Shown here piece after piece: positions 36,693-64,000 of a stretch of 64,000 nucleotides of DNA. The DNA is from a virus. The translations under genes were made by a program, and so were the position numbers. The DNA is taken from the IMG/VR virus record IMGVR_UViG_2802429139_000001; one strand, given 5' to 3'. Below the pieces are notes generated by a model. It worked only from the letters and a program-made list of their open reading frames with translations. It did not search any database and was not told the DNA's origin. Position 1 is the first letter of the stretch. Every line of letters starts with the position of its first letter.

Positions 36693-36908
36693 GGGTGCCT
36701 GCTCTTTCTGTGCGCGTTTCGCGCGACCGTTTCGGTCAGGGTTGGCACTGAAACAGTGGCGAAACAGTGCCCTAGCTGCGGATATGCCGCATGTCTCAGC
36801 CGGGGTCGAAAAGGTCCAGACCCAGGCGGAGCCCCAGCGCCTATGCCAACCGGGGATTTCCGGGGGCCCAGGGGGCTCCCCTCCCCAGCCCCTCTGCGCC
36901 CGCGTGAG
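36693..36908. other. Probable cos/packaging region (GGCACTGAAACAGTGGCGAAACAGTGCC inverted/direct repeats, G-rich runs)
   Basis: Repeats between HNH and TerS genes. Confidence 0.35.
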
Positions 36909-42510: not shown

Positions 42511-42642
42511 CGGCCAGCTCCGCACACGAGACATGCACTGGCTCTTCGTCATGGTTCCGGTACGTCACGCGCGCGCCCAGCGAGTAGCCCTTTCCACAGA
42601 GTGCGCACTGACCGGGCTGGAGCGCCCCGAATGTCACGCCGA

Positions 42643-43110
42643 TCATCGCCAGTTCCATTCCGTCGCGGGCGCGATGAAGATCGACACACCTGGCGTCTCA
42701 CCGATCTCGGCGGTTCGTTTTCGGCCGTGGAGGTCGATCACACGCGAGTCGTCGTCGTAGACCACATGCGTCAACGCGTCCAGAATGGCCCTCTCCAGCT
42801 TGTCGGTGTCGGGCTTCTTGATGGCCGGTGGAGTCGGCTTAGTTTTCGGCAGCGACAGCGGGCGCGGGAGGACAAAGGTCAGTTCCATAGCTAACGCCGT
42901 CTCGACGTAGATGGGTCGGCCAGCCATGGCCTGCTGCGCGAAGACCGCGACATCGGAACGCCACGGCTTCAGGTCCTTCGAGCTTTCCACCATGTGCCCC
43001 CTGCCGACATGTCGCTTTGAACCTTGCGGTGCAGACTTCCCCGGCACGAAGAACGACACGAACGGCGGGGGCGCTTTCGCGCCGATCGACGGATTCACTG
43101 CATCAGGCAT
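42643..43110 (-). CDS. rusA: RusA-like Holliday junction resolvase
   Basis: FFVPGKSAPQGSKRH...DTDKLERAILDALT. Confidence 0.75.
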   Translation of the reverse strand: MPDAVNPSIGAKAPPPFVSFFVPGKSAPQGSKRHVGRGHMVESSKDLKPWRSDVAVFAQQAMAGRPIYVETALAMELTFVLPRPLSLPKTKPTPPAIKKPDTDKLERAILDALTHVVYDDDSRVIDLHGRKRTAEIGETPGVSIFIAPATEWNWR

Positions 43111-43295
43111 CCCAGAACCTCCCTGGAGCGTTGTTGCGACTCCCGACGCTCAATCACACGCCGGTTGATGTTTGATGTTCCAGCGTTTGATTGGGCTGCC
43201 ACAACGAGGCCACCCAACGTGAACGCGGGACCGCCCAACACGTCGCGGATGGGTTTCATCCACTGTTTCGGGCCGGTCAGCCATACGGTGGACGG

Positions 43296-43430
43296 GGTGA
43301 CTGTTTCGCGACCTGTGTTCAGAAACCCTTTAGGGTTTCTGAAACAGTCGCCAGTCACACACCGTGCTGACTGTTTCAACTCGACTGTTTCACTGACTGA
43401 AACACTGAAACAGTCGAAGCATCTGCGTAG
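43296..43430. repeat. Iteron cluster (about 6 copies of GACTGTTTC / GAAACAGTC plus AGAAACCCTTTAGGGTTTCT palindrome); putative replication origin
   Basis: Read directly; adjacent to primase-helicase gene. Confidence 0.55.
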
Positions 43431-43432
43431 GG

Positions 43433-45076
43433 TCATGACCACCTCGCCGCTGATGGGTTCAATGTCATGACCTTGGCGTTACGGGCACCCTCACCGACAA
43501 GGATGACCGACTCCTCGATCGCGGTCTTGATGATCTTGCGCGCGGCATGGAATCCGACGCCACTCTCGCCGAGTTTGGCCGTCAGCGCTCGCATGCCAAG
43601 GCCGCCGATGAACTCGGGATCAGAGAGAATCTGGACCACCAGCGGCAGCCCGTCGCGCGCTTTCGTCGCCGCCCGGCCACCCTCATGCAGTAGCAGCCCG
43701 CCCGTCTCCGGCAGGTACTCCAGCAAACCCTCGGCGACCGCCACGTCTCGCCCGTGCGCCGAGAAGAACCGCTTACCCCCATCGGCTGCCGGGTCCTCTC
43801 CCTCCTCGGTCTGCTCACGCACGATCTTCCAGAGCACATCCGGCCAATCGAGCAGCCGGGAATCGCCGCGGCTGCGCTCAGCGCTGTGGCCCATGTGATG
43901 CACCACGATCGACTCGTCGGCCCCGGTCTCGGCCACGAACGCGTCCCAGGCGACCAGATACTTACCGGCGTCCTTGTCCTCCGAGAGCCCCAGAGCGTCC
44001 AGACAGGGCCGCAGGCAGTCCAGGATGATGAAGTCCGACCCATGCAGCTTGGCCGCCCAGGACGCACGGGTGCTCGGGTCGATGATGTTGAACGTCGCAA
44101 GATGACCCTTCATCGGGAGCACCTGCACACGTTCGGTGTTCTGAATACCCTGCGCGCGTAGCCATCTGCGAAACATGCGCTCATCTAGCTCGGTATCGAT
44201 CACCGTGACCCGCTCAACCTGAGTCGTCGTGAACTTCCCGAGGAATGACACACCGTCGGCCAGCGAGCGCAGTAGGTTGGCCATCATCGTCGTCTTGCCG
44301 GCTTTGTACTGGGCTGCCAGTAGCGCGCGGCCACCCACCGGTAGCAGCTCGCCGATGCGATAGACGGCGTCCTCGTCGGGAATGCTCAAGAAGTCGGTCA
44401 GCGACACTGGATCTGGCGCTGTTTGGCCTAGCTCATGTGCCTGCTGGGCCGCGTAGAGCGCTCGGCCTTCGTCTGACACGCGGAGGTCGTATGCGGACTG
44501 CTGGACGCGCCTACGGTGCATCAACAGACGCTCAGCCTCGGCGTCGCTGATCTCAGCCGCGGGTGCCGGGTCGCCAGCAGGGTCAACCGGGTCAGTCGGC
44601 GGGTCGTTCGGGTCAATGGTGAACGCGGCCGGTATTTCCTCACGCTCGGGCACCTGCCGCGCGCCGACCTTGGCGTCACTGCCGCGGAACGCCGATCGGA
44701 TCGTCGGCATGATCTCGCTTTCGGCCAGGCCGATCGACCGCGCCGTGCTCACCAGGTTGTTGATGGCCGTCTGTTCGTCGATCCTTCCGGCGCGCACCAG
44801 TCCCGCGAGGCTGAATGTTGAGTCATTGAGCTGTTGGTTGCGCGCACCCTCTGGCGTCGCCGCCAGGATCGCCAGCTCCTTTTCCATCGCGGCGCGACCG
44901 TAGCGATCGTCACCGATGAATTCGATAGGCGTCGCGCGCCGTGGTGCCGGTGGTGGCCCGGTGTCGCTTCCGCGGAATCCGCGCATGCGCTCTTTGAATG
45001 AGATGACCTGACCGCCATTGTCTTCGGGCGGTGGCGTTACCGTCTCGTCATTGTTTTCGTCACTCATCGCCGTCAC
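43433..45076 (-). CDS. DNA primase/helicase (RepA-like RecA-fold ATPase with PriCT-like N-terminal domain)
   Basis: QYKAGKTTMMANL Walker A; VVHHMGHSAER. Confidence 0.8.
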   Translation of the reverse strand: MTAMSDENNDETVTPPPEDNGGQVISFKERMRGFRGSDTGPPPAPRRATPIEFIGDDRYGRAAMEKELAILAATPEGARNQQLNDSTFSLAGLVRAGRIDEQTAINNLVSTARSIGLAESEIMPTIRSAFRGSDAKVGARQVPEREEIPAAFTIDPNDPPTDPVDPAGDPAPAAEISDAEAERLLMHRRRVQQSAYDLRVSDEGRALYAAQQAHELGQTAPDPVSLTDFLSIPDEDAVYRIGELLPVGGRALLAAQYKAGKTTMMANLLRSLADGVSFLGKFTTTQVERVTVIDTELDERMFRRWLRAQGIQNTERVQVLPMKGHLATFNIIDPSTRASWAAKLHGSDFIILDCLRPCLDALGLSEDKDAGKYLVAWDAFVAETGADESIVVHHMGHSAERSRGDSRLLDWPDVLWKIVREQTEEGEDPAADGGKRFFSAHGRDVAVAEGLLEYLPETGGLLLHEGGRAATKARDGLPLVVQILSDPEFIGGLGMRALTAKLGESGVGFHAARKIIKTAIEESVILVGEGARNAKVMTLNPSAARWS

Positions 45077-45079
45077 GGA

Positions 45080-45472
45080 CTAGATCCACGGGCCATCTTC
45101 GGCCGCTGACCCAATGGCCGCGAAACGCTGTGCCGTGTCGGCGTCCACACCCAGCGCTGTCCACTCACCGGGGGTGTCAAAGAACTCTTCGCGCGTCATC
45201 TCCAGCATGTCCTCACCGGCGATCAGGCGGTCCACGATCGATTGCGGCGCGTGGATGGTGTGCACGTATTTGACAGCGGGCGACGCATCGATGACAGCCG
45301 GACCGTCGCCCTGGATGACGCGCTGCGGGAATGCGACATAGCGCACAGCCTCGGCAATGTCGGTGGCAACCGTTCTCAACGTCGGCACACCATCGATGTC
45401 CTGCTCTTTGTCTGGCCAGTGCCCGGTAATTGTCGTCTCGATCATGCTGATCAGCTCGGTTTCCGAACCCAT
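45080..45472 (-). CDS. Hypothetical protein
   Basis: Leader motif CAATCACAACACACC upstream. Confidence 0.5.
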   Translation of the reverse strand: MGSETELISMIETTITGHWPDKEQDIDGVPTLRTVATDIAEAVRYVAFPQRVIQGDGPAVIDASPAVKYVHTIHAPQSIVDRLIAGEDMLEMTREEFFDTPGEWTALGVDADTAQRFAAIGSAAEDGPWI

Positions 45473-45645
45473 GGCACTCCTCGGGGTGTGTTGTGATTGC
45501 CTCTCATTGTGCGCCACGCGGGCGCACTATAGGTCCCACACGCGTCCACACGAGCACTTGAACGCCGCGCGGCCACCGCGCCCGGCTGTCTCGCCGAGTA
45601 CGCGGTGACCACGAAACGAGTGCCACCACATTCGCAGCACGAACA

Positions 45646-48442: not shown

Positions 48443-48763
48443 CTACCCGAGATTGTCTCGATTGAGCGGCACGACCGTGAGAGTCGTCGTGCCGAACTGT
48501 GGACGCCCCAGAAGGCGCGCGTAGATCTTCTGGCGTGCCGTCTCCATGGCCGCCGGGTCGGCGCTGATGTCCCTGATAATCTTCTCGACAATCGTTGCCT
48601 GGACCTCCTCCGGCGGTGCGTCGTCGTGACCCTCCGACGCGTTCATGATGAGCGTGGCCACACCACTGGCGAAGCCGTCAAGCCAGATGTCCAGCAGGAC
48701 CTCCGGGTTGACCTGTTTCACCTCAACATCAGGGTCAGTGTTGGTGTTCGTCGATTCATTCAT
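48443..48763 (-). CDS. Hypothetical acidic protein
   Basis: ATGA overlap with Prim-Pol stop. Confidence 0.5.
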   Translation of the reverse strand: MNESTNTNTDPDVEVKQVNPEVLLDIWLDGFASGVATLIMNASEGHDDAPPEEVQATIVEKIIRDISADPAAMETARQKIYARLLGRPQFGTTTLTVVPLNRDNLG

Positions 48764-49467
48764 TCTTTCTCTCCCTTTACTTTCGGTGACGGCTTGACCG
48801 TCCACGACCAGCGGTGCTGGGGGTCTATGCGCGATGGCGGCGCGACGACATAGCCACCGACGCCGCGGTAGTCGATACCGGGCGCGATGCGTGCTGAGTT
48901 GCCGTCGCCGGTGGGCTCGATGAGGAGGTGCACGCCACCAGATGAGGTGGCCACCCTGCCATGGACATCTGGTACGCGATCCTCATTGATCATGTCGCGC
49001 AACGACAACCAGCCATCGGGTACGTCCACATCGATCACGTCGAAGTGGACGCCGGTCGGTATGCCGATGTTGCATAGCGGATGTTTGGTCCAGAACTTCT
49101 TGATGCGCTCAGGATCAGTCGTCGCGTCCTTGAAACCGTTTCCGCCATCCTTCTTCGCGATCGCCGGCCGCTTCCCACCCACCTCCAGCGGGAACACAGG
49201 CCAGCCGTACTCCGTGGCGTAGAACAGCGCCGAGAGCCCCAGTGGCGGGGGGATCTCATCGAGCGCTTTCAGCTCAGCCTCGATGCGCGCCTCAAGCTCG
49301 GGCTGGTCGCTCATGTAGACGGCGGCGCGCAACTCCTCGGTTAGCAGCTCCACGCGCGTCAGGGTTGGCGTTGGCGCGTTCTCTGCGCACTCCGGATGCT
49401 GACGCTGGTCGTCGTCGGTGACGATCATGAGTGTGTTGCACGAGACGCACGTGGAGTAGGTGAACAT
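48760..49467 (-). CDS. Bifunctional DNA primase/polymerase (Prim-Pol) domain protein
   Basis: YGWPVFPLEVGGKRPA...DVIDVDVPDGW. Confidence 0.8.
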   Translation of the reverse strand: MFTYSTCVSCNTLMIVTDDDQRQHPECAENAPTPTLTRVELLTEELRAAVYMSDQPELEARIEAELKALDEIPPPLGLSALFYATEYGWPVFPLEVGGKRPAIAKKDGGNGFKDATTDPERIKKFWTKHPLCNIGIPTGVHFDVIDVDVPDGWLSLRDMINEDRVPDVHGRVATSSGGVHLLIEPTGDGNSARIAPGIDYRGVGGYVVAPPSRIDPQHRWSWTVKPSPKVKGEKE

Positions 49468-62488: not shown

Positions 62489-62538
62489 GCTGACTCTTAA
62501 TCAGCGGGTCTGGGGTTCGAAACCCTGACGGCGCACCA
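62489..62538 (+). tRNA. Partial tRNA-Lys(CTT): anticodon stem-loop to CCA only (attR core), not a complete gene
   Basis: GCTGA-CTCTTAA-TCAGC anticodon arm, T-arm TGGGGTTCGAAACCCTG, acceptor ACGGCGCACCA; no matching 5' acceptor or D-arm. Confidence 0.6.
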
Positions 62539-62837
62539 TGCAAACGCACTGCTCAGGCAGGGTTGTTGTCGTTTCGGAGTGTTTGCTGCCTGTGACAGAT
62601 GTGACCGATGTGACCGAAAGGTCTCCATATTGTCCCCGCGCTGCGGGAGCAGACCCACCACAGCAAACGGCGCGTCGGCGTGACATGTGAGACCGCCGTC
62701 CTAAGGTCGTGCCGTGTCTAATATGCCTCCCGACCCCGATGCATCTGACTCACGCGAGGACGGTGCACCTACCAAAGAGGCCTGTGCCAAGCTCTATCAG
62801 GAAGTGGGTCTGCTGCACGATCAGGTGACAATTTCGG

Positions 62838-63659
62838 TCACGCGGCCTGACTGGCCGTCGTGGTCATGATGGCTTCGTATTCGACGGGGGTCAACCGGCC
62901 GAGGGCGCCTTGGCGGCGACGTCGGTGGTAGGTGCGTTCGATCCAAGTGACGATGGCGATCCGCAGCTCCTCTCGGGTGGCCCAGCGGCGGCGGTCGAGG
63001 ACGTTCTTCTGCAGCAGGCTGAAGAAGCTCTCCATCGCCGCGTTGTCGCCGGCCGCGCCGACACGTCCCATTGAGCCGACCATGCCGTGATGGTGCAGGG
63101 CCTGGACGAACTTTCGACTTCGAAACTGCGACCCTCTGTCCGTGTGAACCACGCAGCCGGCGACCACCCCACGGCGGCCGACCGCGTTGCGCAGCGCGGC
63201 GGTCGCCAGGCGTGACTTCATTCGGGAGTCGATCGAATAACCCACGATGCGGTTGGAGAATGCATCCTTGATCGCGCAGAGGTAGAGCTTGCCATCGCCG
63301 GTGTAATGCTCAGTTATGTCGCTGAGCCACAACATGTTTGGCGTTTCAGCGGTGAAGTCGCGCTGGACCAGATCGTCGTGCACCGGCGGTCCTGGTTTGC
63401 CGTTCTTGCCGCGCTTCTTGCCGAACACGCTCCACAACTGCTGCTGTGAGCAGATGCGCCAGGCGGTGCGCTCGGCCATCGGCTCGCCGGCCTCACGGGC
63501 CTCCTCGACGAGGTAGCGGTAGCCGAACTCGGGGTCCTCGCCGTGCGCGTCGAACAGGGCGTTGGCGCGGTATGCCTCGACGAGTTCGGCATCGGTGATG
63601 GGATTTGCCCGCCAGCGGTAGTAGGGCTGGCGGGCGAGCTTGAGTACCCGGCGCGTCAC
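62838..63659 (-). CDS. IS3-family transposase OrfB (DDE catalytic domain)
   Basis: HTDRGSQFRSRKF ... integrase core. Confidence 0.85.
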   Translation of the reverse strand: MTRRVLKLARQPYYRWRANPITDAELVEAYRANALFDAHGEDPEFGYRYLVEEAREAGEPMAERTAWRICSQQQLWSVFGKKRGKNGKPGPPVHDDLVQRDFTAETPNMLWLSDITEHYTGDGKLYLCAIKDAFSNRIVGYSIDSRMKSRLATAALRNAVGRRGVVAGCVVHTDRGSQFRSRKFVQALHHHGMVGSMGRVGAAGDNAAMESFFSLLQKNVLDRRRWATREELRIAIVTWIERTYHRRRRQGALGRLTPVEYEAIMTTTASQAA

Positions 63660-63691
63660 CGCGACGGGAATCCCGTCGGCGGCGAGCTCAC

Positions 63692-64000
63692 TTACGAGCG
63701 GGTAGACCCTTTTCCCGGCAGATTGGCCTGCGACAAGTACGCCGCTGCCCGCCGTAAGACTTCATTCTCTTGTTCCAACAACCGATTTCGGCGTCGTAGC
63801 TCGCGCAGATCAGCGGAGTCATTGGTGCTCTTACCCGGCTTGGCGCCCTCGTCGACGTCGGCTTGGCGCATCCACTTGGTCAACGTCATCGGGTGCACGC
63901 CGAAATCGGTGGCGATCTGCTCGATCGTCACCCCGTCGTCGCGGTTACGGGCAACGCGGACGACGTCGTCGCGAAATTCACGGGGGTAGGGCCTAGGCAC
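63692..64000 (-). CDS. IS3-family transposase OrfA (HTH + leucine zipper)
   Basis: MPRPYPREFRDDVVRVA...LRELRRRNRLLEQENEVLRRAAAYL. Confidence 0.8.
   Translation of the reverse strand: MPRPYPREFRDDVVRVARNRDDGVTIEQIATDFGVHPMTLTKWMRQADVDEGAKPGKSTNDSADLRELRRRNRLLEQENEVLRRAAAYLSQANLPGKGSTRS

Follow-up and report, generated by a model that had tools for sequence, protein, structure and literature searches.

A candidate lytic replication origin at the 3' end of a RepA-like helicase gene in a Mycobacteroides abscessus prophage

The lytic origins of mycobacteriophages are largely unmapped. A viral DNA of 64,000 nucleotides (the window, meaning the whole stretch that was analysed) carries a dense cluster of short repeats beside a gene for a replicative-type helicase, and this raises the question of whether the cluster is the place where lytic replication begins. 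blastn of positions 42600-45600 gave 100% identity to the 66.5-kb Mycobacterium phage prophiFSIL01-1 (FSIL01; BK061311.1), a cluster MabR prophage of Mycobacteroides abscessus (Mycobacterium abscessus). Over the same segment the MabR relatives McProf, prophiFSAT01-1 (FSAT01), prophiFVLQ01-1 (FVLQ01) and prophiFSQJ01-1 (FSQJ01) are 89%, 87%, 82% and 75% identical. The description of MabR makes no mention of replication, and our literature searches returned no account of a helicase-array module of this kind in actinophages. The one mycobacterial phage-origin study that was found concerns the maintenance of extrachromosomal prophages. Mapping of coordinates onto BK061311.1 (window x = record 62536 - x) puts one inferred end of the prophage near position 62535; the final 1.5 kb (62536-64000) should therefore be host chromosome, and the other end would lie outside the window.

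The repeat array and its central palindrome

All genes around the array are carried by the minus strand. In the order of transcription they are the Prim-Pol gene (gene 24), several small genes, gene 36, gene 37 and the RusA resolvase gene (gene 38), followed by genes for an HTH protein, a methyltransferase, an HNH protein and TerS. Gene 36 (43433-45076), named 'DnaB-like dsDNA helicase' in GenBank, is the helicase gene. Because it runs on the minus strand from 45076 to 43433, the array at 43261-43415 lies between its stop codon and the RusA gene, on the downstream side of the helicase gene and not on its upstream side (as transcription runs), where a first-pass annotation of the sequence had placed it. 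The nearest iteron is 18 nt past the helicase stop codon. The RusA gene (42643-43110, minus strand) is directly 3' of the array. Its start is probably the ATG at 43110, which is preceded by a ribosome-binding site, AGGGAGG, conserved in all six MabR variants; the GTG at 43098, the start given in GenBank, is less likely.

The 9-bp repeat GACTGTTTC/GAAACAGTC occurs exactly five times in the 64 kb, and all five copies fall within 117 bp (43299-43415). Three are on the plus strand (43299-43307, 43369-43377 and 43383-43391) and two on the minus strand (43341-43349, reading GAAACAGTC on the plus strand, and 43407-43415, the copy closest to the helicase stop codon). Dinucleotide shuffles of the window gave a mean of 0.34 copies, with a maximum of 2. 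The k-mer cluster score of the array, 21, makes it the top repeat cluster of the window, as compared with scores of 9 or less in 20 block shuffles. Three degenerate copies complete the array: CACTGTTTC (43261-43269, plus strand), which has one mismatch and is outermost on the RusA side; the iteron-like arm GACCTGTGTTC (43310-43320, plus strand); and a partial copy (43397-43405, minus strand) that reads CTGAAACAC on the plus strand and GTGTTTCAG in the sense of transcription. The cluster of about six copies in both orientations described at first pass thus stands, with five exact and three degenerate copies distributed in both orientations on both sides of a palindrome at 43318-43343.

Conservation of the region follows the repeats. 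In a six-way DNA alignment of the MabR variants, every invariant run of at least 8 nt coincides with a repeat copy. Positions 43262-43269 of the outermost copy are invariant, the runs 43302-43316, 43340-43351 and 43367-43375 take in the exact iterons that begin at 43299, 43341 and 43369, and a 20-nt run (43397-43416) contains the partial copy and the exact copy at 43407-43415. The iterons are the same in all six variants, with one mismatch in FVLQ01 in the copy at 43369-43377. The exact copy at 43383-43391 is in the left arm of a 15-nt inverted repeat (43381-43395 and 43403-43417). The GC content dips to 0.49 at the array, as compared with about 0.62 around it. There is no extended AT-rich unwinding tract in the array, only this dip and a 4-nt A/T centre, and neither local nor whole-window GC skew showed a switch at 43.3 kb. 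A search of viral contigs for the exact pattern of iterons matched none beyond the five known MabR contigs, and a search of metagenomes gave zero matches.

At the centre of the array lies an inverted repeat with 12-nt arms (43318-43329 and 43332-43343), so that the perfect palindrome recognized earlier, AGAAACCCTTTAGGGTTTCT at 43321-43340, is the core of a somewhat longer element. Its centre is TTTA within a GC-rich stem. The segment from GCGACTGTTTCA to ...ACAGGTCGC folds into a long hairpin, in which an iteron and a degenerate inverted copy form the outer stem: the arm GACCTGTGTTC pairs with the iteron at 43341-43351 and lengthens the stem, and this pairing is kept in six of six variants. 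Folding of the single-stranded DNA gave z-scores of -7.4 and -9.0, and of -6 for the central palindrome. The inner arms exist in three sequence versions among the MabR variants, CAGAAACCCT/AGGGTTTCTG, CAAGAACCCT/AGGGTTCTTG (in FSQJ01) and GTTTTCTC/GAGAAAAC (in FVLQ01), and all three are still complementary, that is, the changes are compensatory. Since the arms vary yet continue to pair, while the iterons are identical across the variants, the inner element seems to be under selection for structure or symmetry and not for sequence.

Very stable hairpins, compensatory changes in the central stem and a reading frame that is kept open across the region (see below) would also suit an element that acts as RNA in the polycistronic mRNA, whether as a processing site, as a stabilizer or in translational coupling of helicase and RusA. 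We consider this very improbable. The repeat copies are conserved in sequence, beyond what pairing calls for, and a search of Rfam at a permissive threshold gave zero matches in the region. The loop at the centre of the palindrome is TAAA on the sense strand here versus TTTA in three other lineages that carry an equivalent array (L009, L012 and L021); this difference in orientation between lineages is more in keeping with a strand-symmetric element in DNA than with an RNA. An intrinsic terminator after the helicase gene was also considered, and was rejected because a T-run is absent.

The open reading frame over the array

The whole array is covered by gene 37 (43095-43436, minus strand), a hypothetical gene of 113 codons annotated in all five GenBank MabR records. 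The repeats could thus be no more than the coding sequence of a genuine protein, devoid of any cis-acting role. Besides the annotation, this explanation can draw on the frame itself, which is open in six of six MabR variants and overlaps the helicase stop codon by an ATGA. Random substitution would leave it open with a probability of 5-16% per diverged lineage, and of shuffled sequences only about 1% are open.

The pattern of substitution is nonetheless not that of a protein gene. Differences at codon positions 1, 2 and 3 number 31, 37 and 35 between FSIL01 and FSQJ01, and 44, 48 and 49 between FSIL01 and FVLQ01. The helicase and RusA genes show a normal coding pattern (93, 67 and 233 with an omega of 0.2, and 34, 23 and 75 with an omega of 0.17). 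Omega is 0.57-0.72 for ORF 37 as compared with 0.08-0.21 for neighbouring genes, and its GC content by codon position is 0.54, 0.51 and 0.62 as compared with about 0.65, 0.45 and 0.75 in 30 neighbouring genes, a flat GC3. Amino-acid identity among MabR phages is 42-49%, versus 71-89% for the flanking genes; FVLQ01 has frame-shifting indels in the region; and searches of Pfam, PHROGs and NCBIfam with ORF 37 gave no family match. A peptide repeat in gp37 was ruled out because the copies occur in both orientations, and some lineages outside MabR have the equivalent array between genes, in a stretch without a called gene. That the array is merely the coding sequence of gene 37 is therefore, on these counts, highly unlikely.

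ORF 37 shows no selection at the amino-acid level. Even substitution across codon positions, flat GC3, low amino-acid identity and the confinement of invariant runs to the repeats together indicate that selection acts on the DNA repeats and not on a protein. This bears out, at the amino-acid level, the earlier suspicion that the minus-strand frame (43095..43442) is probably non-coding, with the qualification that the frame stays open. Since the frame would be mildly unlikely to stay open under random substitution, read-through translation is perhaps slightly favoured, either for coupling to RusA expression or as a guard against polarity. ORF 37 is probably either spurious or translated in passing, with a sequence set by the DNA element, and gene 37 and its equivalents have probably been mis-annotated as protein genes, a recurring annotation error. 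An antisense ORF (43024-43470, plus strand) is open in five of the six variants and gave no matches in Pfam or PHROGs; its openness is probably a by-product of stop-poor palindromic repeats.

The helicase and equivalent arrays in other lineages

The product of gene 36 (547 aa) is a RepA-like homologue of the RecA-fold hexameric helicases, and Pfam finds in it AAA_25 only (5e-21). An AlphaFold2 model built from 59 homologues (mean pLDDT 87) begins, at the N-terminal side, with a four-helix bundle (residues 57-135) and a long helix, continues into a RecA-like core (225-465) and ends in a C-terminal helix-helix-helix-wing unit. When the whole model was compared with the PDB by Foldseek, the top matches were structures of RSF1010 RepA (1olo and 1g8y; E 1.6e-10, TM 0.68-0.71), followed by KaiC, DnaB and RecA. 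The four-helix bundle returned nothing usable from Pfam searches with fragments, a PDB sequence search or PHROGs. No primase domain was detected in the helicase. The earlier label of RepA-like primase-helicase is thus retained for the AAA_25/RecA-fold core and dropped for the primase, since a separate gene (gene 24; 48760-49467, minus strand) encodes a Prim-Pol (PF09250, 2.4e-33), the likely priming partner. Among the ~740 homologues of the helicase, some are Prim-Pol fusions.

Residues ~466-547 (43436-43681, minus strand) are confidently predicted to form a winged helix, which is a candidate iteron-binding domain. Lineages that differ in their iterons show 19-49% identity in this domain and 44-70% in the core; within MabR, where the iterons are identical, the winged helix is 71-87% identical. 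Replicative helicases of the RepA/DnaB type with a RecA fold normally depend on a separate initiator or loader. Pfam detected no other initiator-type domain in the early region, and no RepC-like domain was found among the early genes. An unrecognized small protein could instead be the true iteron binder.

If array and helicase form a unit, they should be found together elsewhere. Loci with homologues of the helicase were drawn from genomes, viral contigs and metagenome assemblies, and the position of the strongest short-repeat cluster was determined in each of 17 independent non-MabR loci (4.7-9.4 kb; helicase identity 24-57%). The strongest cluster lay in the region of the helicase stop codon in 11 of them. 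With a null probability of about 0.07 per locus, the binomial tail for this outcome is 3e-9. In two further loci (L010 and L011) the ORF is a longer primase-helicase ORF whose last 250 nt hold the array, just past the winged helix. The remaining four have no array at the helicase stop codon or ORF end; two of these lack any cluster, and in the other two the strongest one is about 2 kb downstream.

The motifs are specific to lineages (CGCGCGGT, GGCACAGT, CAGTTCGT, GGTCTCA, ACCTCCCT, AACCTTTC, CAGTGTGC, CAGTGCGC, GCCCCACC, CACGGTCG and, in L027, the GGGAAACT type). Each occurs in both orientations and is almost confined to the array within its own locus. A palindrome with a GC stem and an A/T centre, CCCTTTAGGG or CGTATATAACG, lies in the middle of many arrays: it is CCCTTTAGGG in L009, L012 and L021, GGGGCCCTTAAAGGGGCCCC in L027 and CGCGTATATAACGCG-like in L023-L025, L010, L011 and L014, and TATATA centres are found among these relatives. 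The gene that follows the array varies from locus to locus and may encode RusA, a Hjc-like nuclease, or satellite or unrelated proteins. As judged from these sequences, what stays with the array from locus to locus is the helicase and not the gene downstream.

Several individual loci deserve description. In L010 (5130-5335) and L011 (5090-5290), the array and a TATATA-centred palindrome lie in the 3' end of a primase-helicase ORF of 920-930 aa. The array there falls between the winged helix and a conserved zinc-ribbon-like CxxC...CPxC tail, so that the putative origin would be embedded in coding sequence, as in lambda O. In L007 (5440-5670) an ORF begins on the helicase stop codon and then enters the GGCACAGT iteron array; its first ~70 residues look like those of a winged-HTH protein (...LPKTIGNILYEMSRYGEVLRRG...). 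A looser iteron pattern, searched against metagenomes, recovered one further helicase-linked array and several unrelated low-GC contigs. The former is on a metagenome contig (L040, 2772-4144) whose helicase is only 24% identical to that of the window; its GAAACAG(T/C)C array starts on the helicase stop codon, and the motif is nearly that of the window. The latter (L039, L041, L043 and L044; GC 0.35-0.40) carry dense GAAACAGTC/TGTTTCA repeat arrays, and L043 has one ORF of at least 80 aa in about 3 kb.

Three small elements from M. abscessus or Mycobacterium (L023 1068-7131, L024 1242-7605 and L025 1234-7530) have the order recombinase/integrase, (HTH_17), helicase, array, two or three small genes, and capsid or tape-measure gene. 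From this gene content they look like phage satellites (PICI-like) that share the rep-ori module. They carry the array in the absence of a resolvase gene and of regulators of the gp42/gp43 type.

These loci bear on two further explanations of the array. It could be a cluster of operators for a transcription factor that controls RusA and the later genes, with a second operator ahead of the terminase operon. Two DNA-binding proteins that might serve, gp42 and gp43 (the HTH protein), are encoded about 2 kb downstream of the array, and there is a possible second site. Two direct copies of ACTGTTTC, 11 nt apart (36749-36769, minus strand), lie about 60 nt upstream of the TerS start and 6.6 kb from the array, which confirms, at ~36750-36769, the related twofold repeat reported previously near the presumed cos region. 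This layout, together with two GC hairpins that follow the pair (see below), is kept in FSAT01 and FVLQ01 and, in part, in FSQJ01, in which the first copy, GACTGTTTCA, is identical to the iteron of the array. Such iteron-like copies upstream of TerS could indicate a regulator instead of an initiator. Yet the array follows the 3' end of the helicase gene across lineages, whatever gene comes next, and the satellite-like elements have it although they lack these regulators. Moreover, a scan of 42900-43700 for sigma-70-type consensus sequences, the only type covered, found no promoter-like or terminator-like site, and the genes on either side overlap ORF 37 in the manner of a single operon. Taken together, these points make an operator cluster unlikely.

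The pair upstream of TerS could equally be a second site for the helicase, like crr of P4, or a terminase site (cosB-like). The two GC hairpins that follow the pair, within the stretch 36720-36790 (minus strand), have AAA loops and read GACCGAAACGGTC and GCGCGAAACGCGC. A block between the HNH and TerS genes, CCCCGGTTGGCATAGGCGCT (~36836-36856, minus strand), is invariant in five of five MabR phages and is likely to be the cos site.

The second explanation is that the helicase binds the array as its cognate site for a purpose other than initiation, either autoregulation of the replication operon or loading of the helicase for recombination-dependent replication beside the resolvase gene. The evidence that links array and helicase applies equally here; in many lineages the gene after the array encodes a resolvase, an enzyme for which an extruded cruciform is a substrate. 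On the other side, the satellite-like elements have the array without a resolvase, and the layout is like that of proven origins. We therefore give a role of this kind only a small chance.

A candidate lytic origin and its relation to known systems

[quoted passage not shown] The SaPI Rep protein is both helicase and initiator, through a C-terminal winged helix, as shown experimentally; its origin consists of 6-12 short iterons directly downstream of the rep ORF, with opposite orientations on either side of a central region, the place at which melting begins, and the primase is encoded upstream or fused (PMC9371898). The MabR locus shares most of this with the rep-ori units of SaPI/PICI elements (Rep1, PriRep5). 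The array begins 18 nt past the stop codon, with the same placement in 11 of 17 distant loci; five exact and three degenerate copies lie in both orientations on both sides of a palindrome; the helicase has a predicted C-terminal winged helix, with the Prim-Pol gene upstream; and satellite-like relatives (int - HTH_17 - helicase - array - capsid) exist in Mycobacterium. There are also differences. SaPI Reps are AAA+ proteins (SF3/MCM-like), whereas the helicase described here has a RecA fold and is RepA/DnaB-like (SF4-like). The iterons are 9 bp in length versus 5-6 bp in SaPI, a GC-stemmed palindrome with a 4-nt A/T core takes the place of an AT-rich tract, and the element, across which an open reading frame runs, belongs to a 66-kb temperate phage.

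Since the anatomy matches that of the experimentally characterized SaPI Rep-ori, we propose that the array at 43261-43415 is the lytic replication origin, forming a rep-ori module with the helicase and bound by the helicase's own winged helix. We put the probability of this reading, which draws on sequence comparison and structural modelling, at about 0.7. The putative origin of the first-pass annotation is in this respect supported by computational tests, namely the invariant repeat copies, the arrays in 11 of 17 loci and the predicted winged helix.

The helicase would bind the 9-bp iterons (GAAACAGTC repeats), which face both ways round the central palindrome, by means of its C-terminal winged helix. 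Oligomers would then build up on both sides of the centre and bring about its melting or extrusion. Next, the helicase would load itself and Prim-Pol, the product of a separate gene, would prime synthesis. We infer binding of the repeats by the winged helix, melting, self-loading and the start of replication at the array from the layout of the locus and the predicted fold.

Three other systems share parts of this design. IncQ oriV combines iterons with hairpin-forming priming signals used by the plasmid's own primase, RepB', and its 20-bp direct iterons are bound by a separate initiator protein, RepC. The helicase core described here has its best match in RepA of the IncQ plasmid RSF1010, a structure-conserved hairpin is present among the iterons, and the Prim-Pol encoded elsewhere in the early region may or may not act at it. 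Unlike in IncQ, the repeats are of 9 bp and in both orientations, no RepC-like protein was found, and the helicase itself bears the predicted winged helix.

The alpha protein of the satellite phage P4 unites a primase, an SF3 helicase and a C-terminal winged-helix origin-binding domain in one polypeptide. The P4 ori consists of short iterons in both orientations, and a second iteron site (crr), required in cis, is several kb away. Helicase and C-terminal winged helix are likewise in one polypeptide here, and the pair upstream of TerS, at a distance of 6.6 kb, is a possible second site; however, alpha includes a primase and its helicase is SF3, and that pair may instead belong to cos/terminase recognition. 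In lambda, the ori iterons are inside gene O, which encodes the initiator. The iterons described here also lie within an open reading frame of a replication operon, and in L010 and L011 the array is inside the helicase ORF, but O is under selection at the protein level and ORF 37 is not. By analogy, the module appears to be functionally like the SaPI/PICI rep-ori and to resemble P4 alpha/ori, built on a different type of helicase.

A broader reading is possible, which we advance tentatively and think rather less likely than not to hold in full. Actinobacterial phages and satellite-like elements would share an undescribed class of self-loading initiator-helicases with a RecA fold (SF4-like), which recognize their own origin by a fused winged helix, dispense with a separate initiator or loader, and act on a cruciform or hairpin of conserved structure that lies between inverted iterons. 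Within such a class, the second pair of iterons next to cos might couple replication to packaging.

The array is a plausible lytic origin for M. abscessus prophages and for the satellite-like elements related to them, and the small int-helicase-array-capsid elements point to mycobacterial phage satellites that use the same module. If it functions in M. abscessus or M. chelonae, a cassette of helicase plus origin would serve well in vectors and in the engineering of therapeutic phages. If the proposal is true, the design of an initiator-helicase with an adjacent iteron origin, as in SaPIs and P4, also arose on a RecA-fold helicase.
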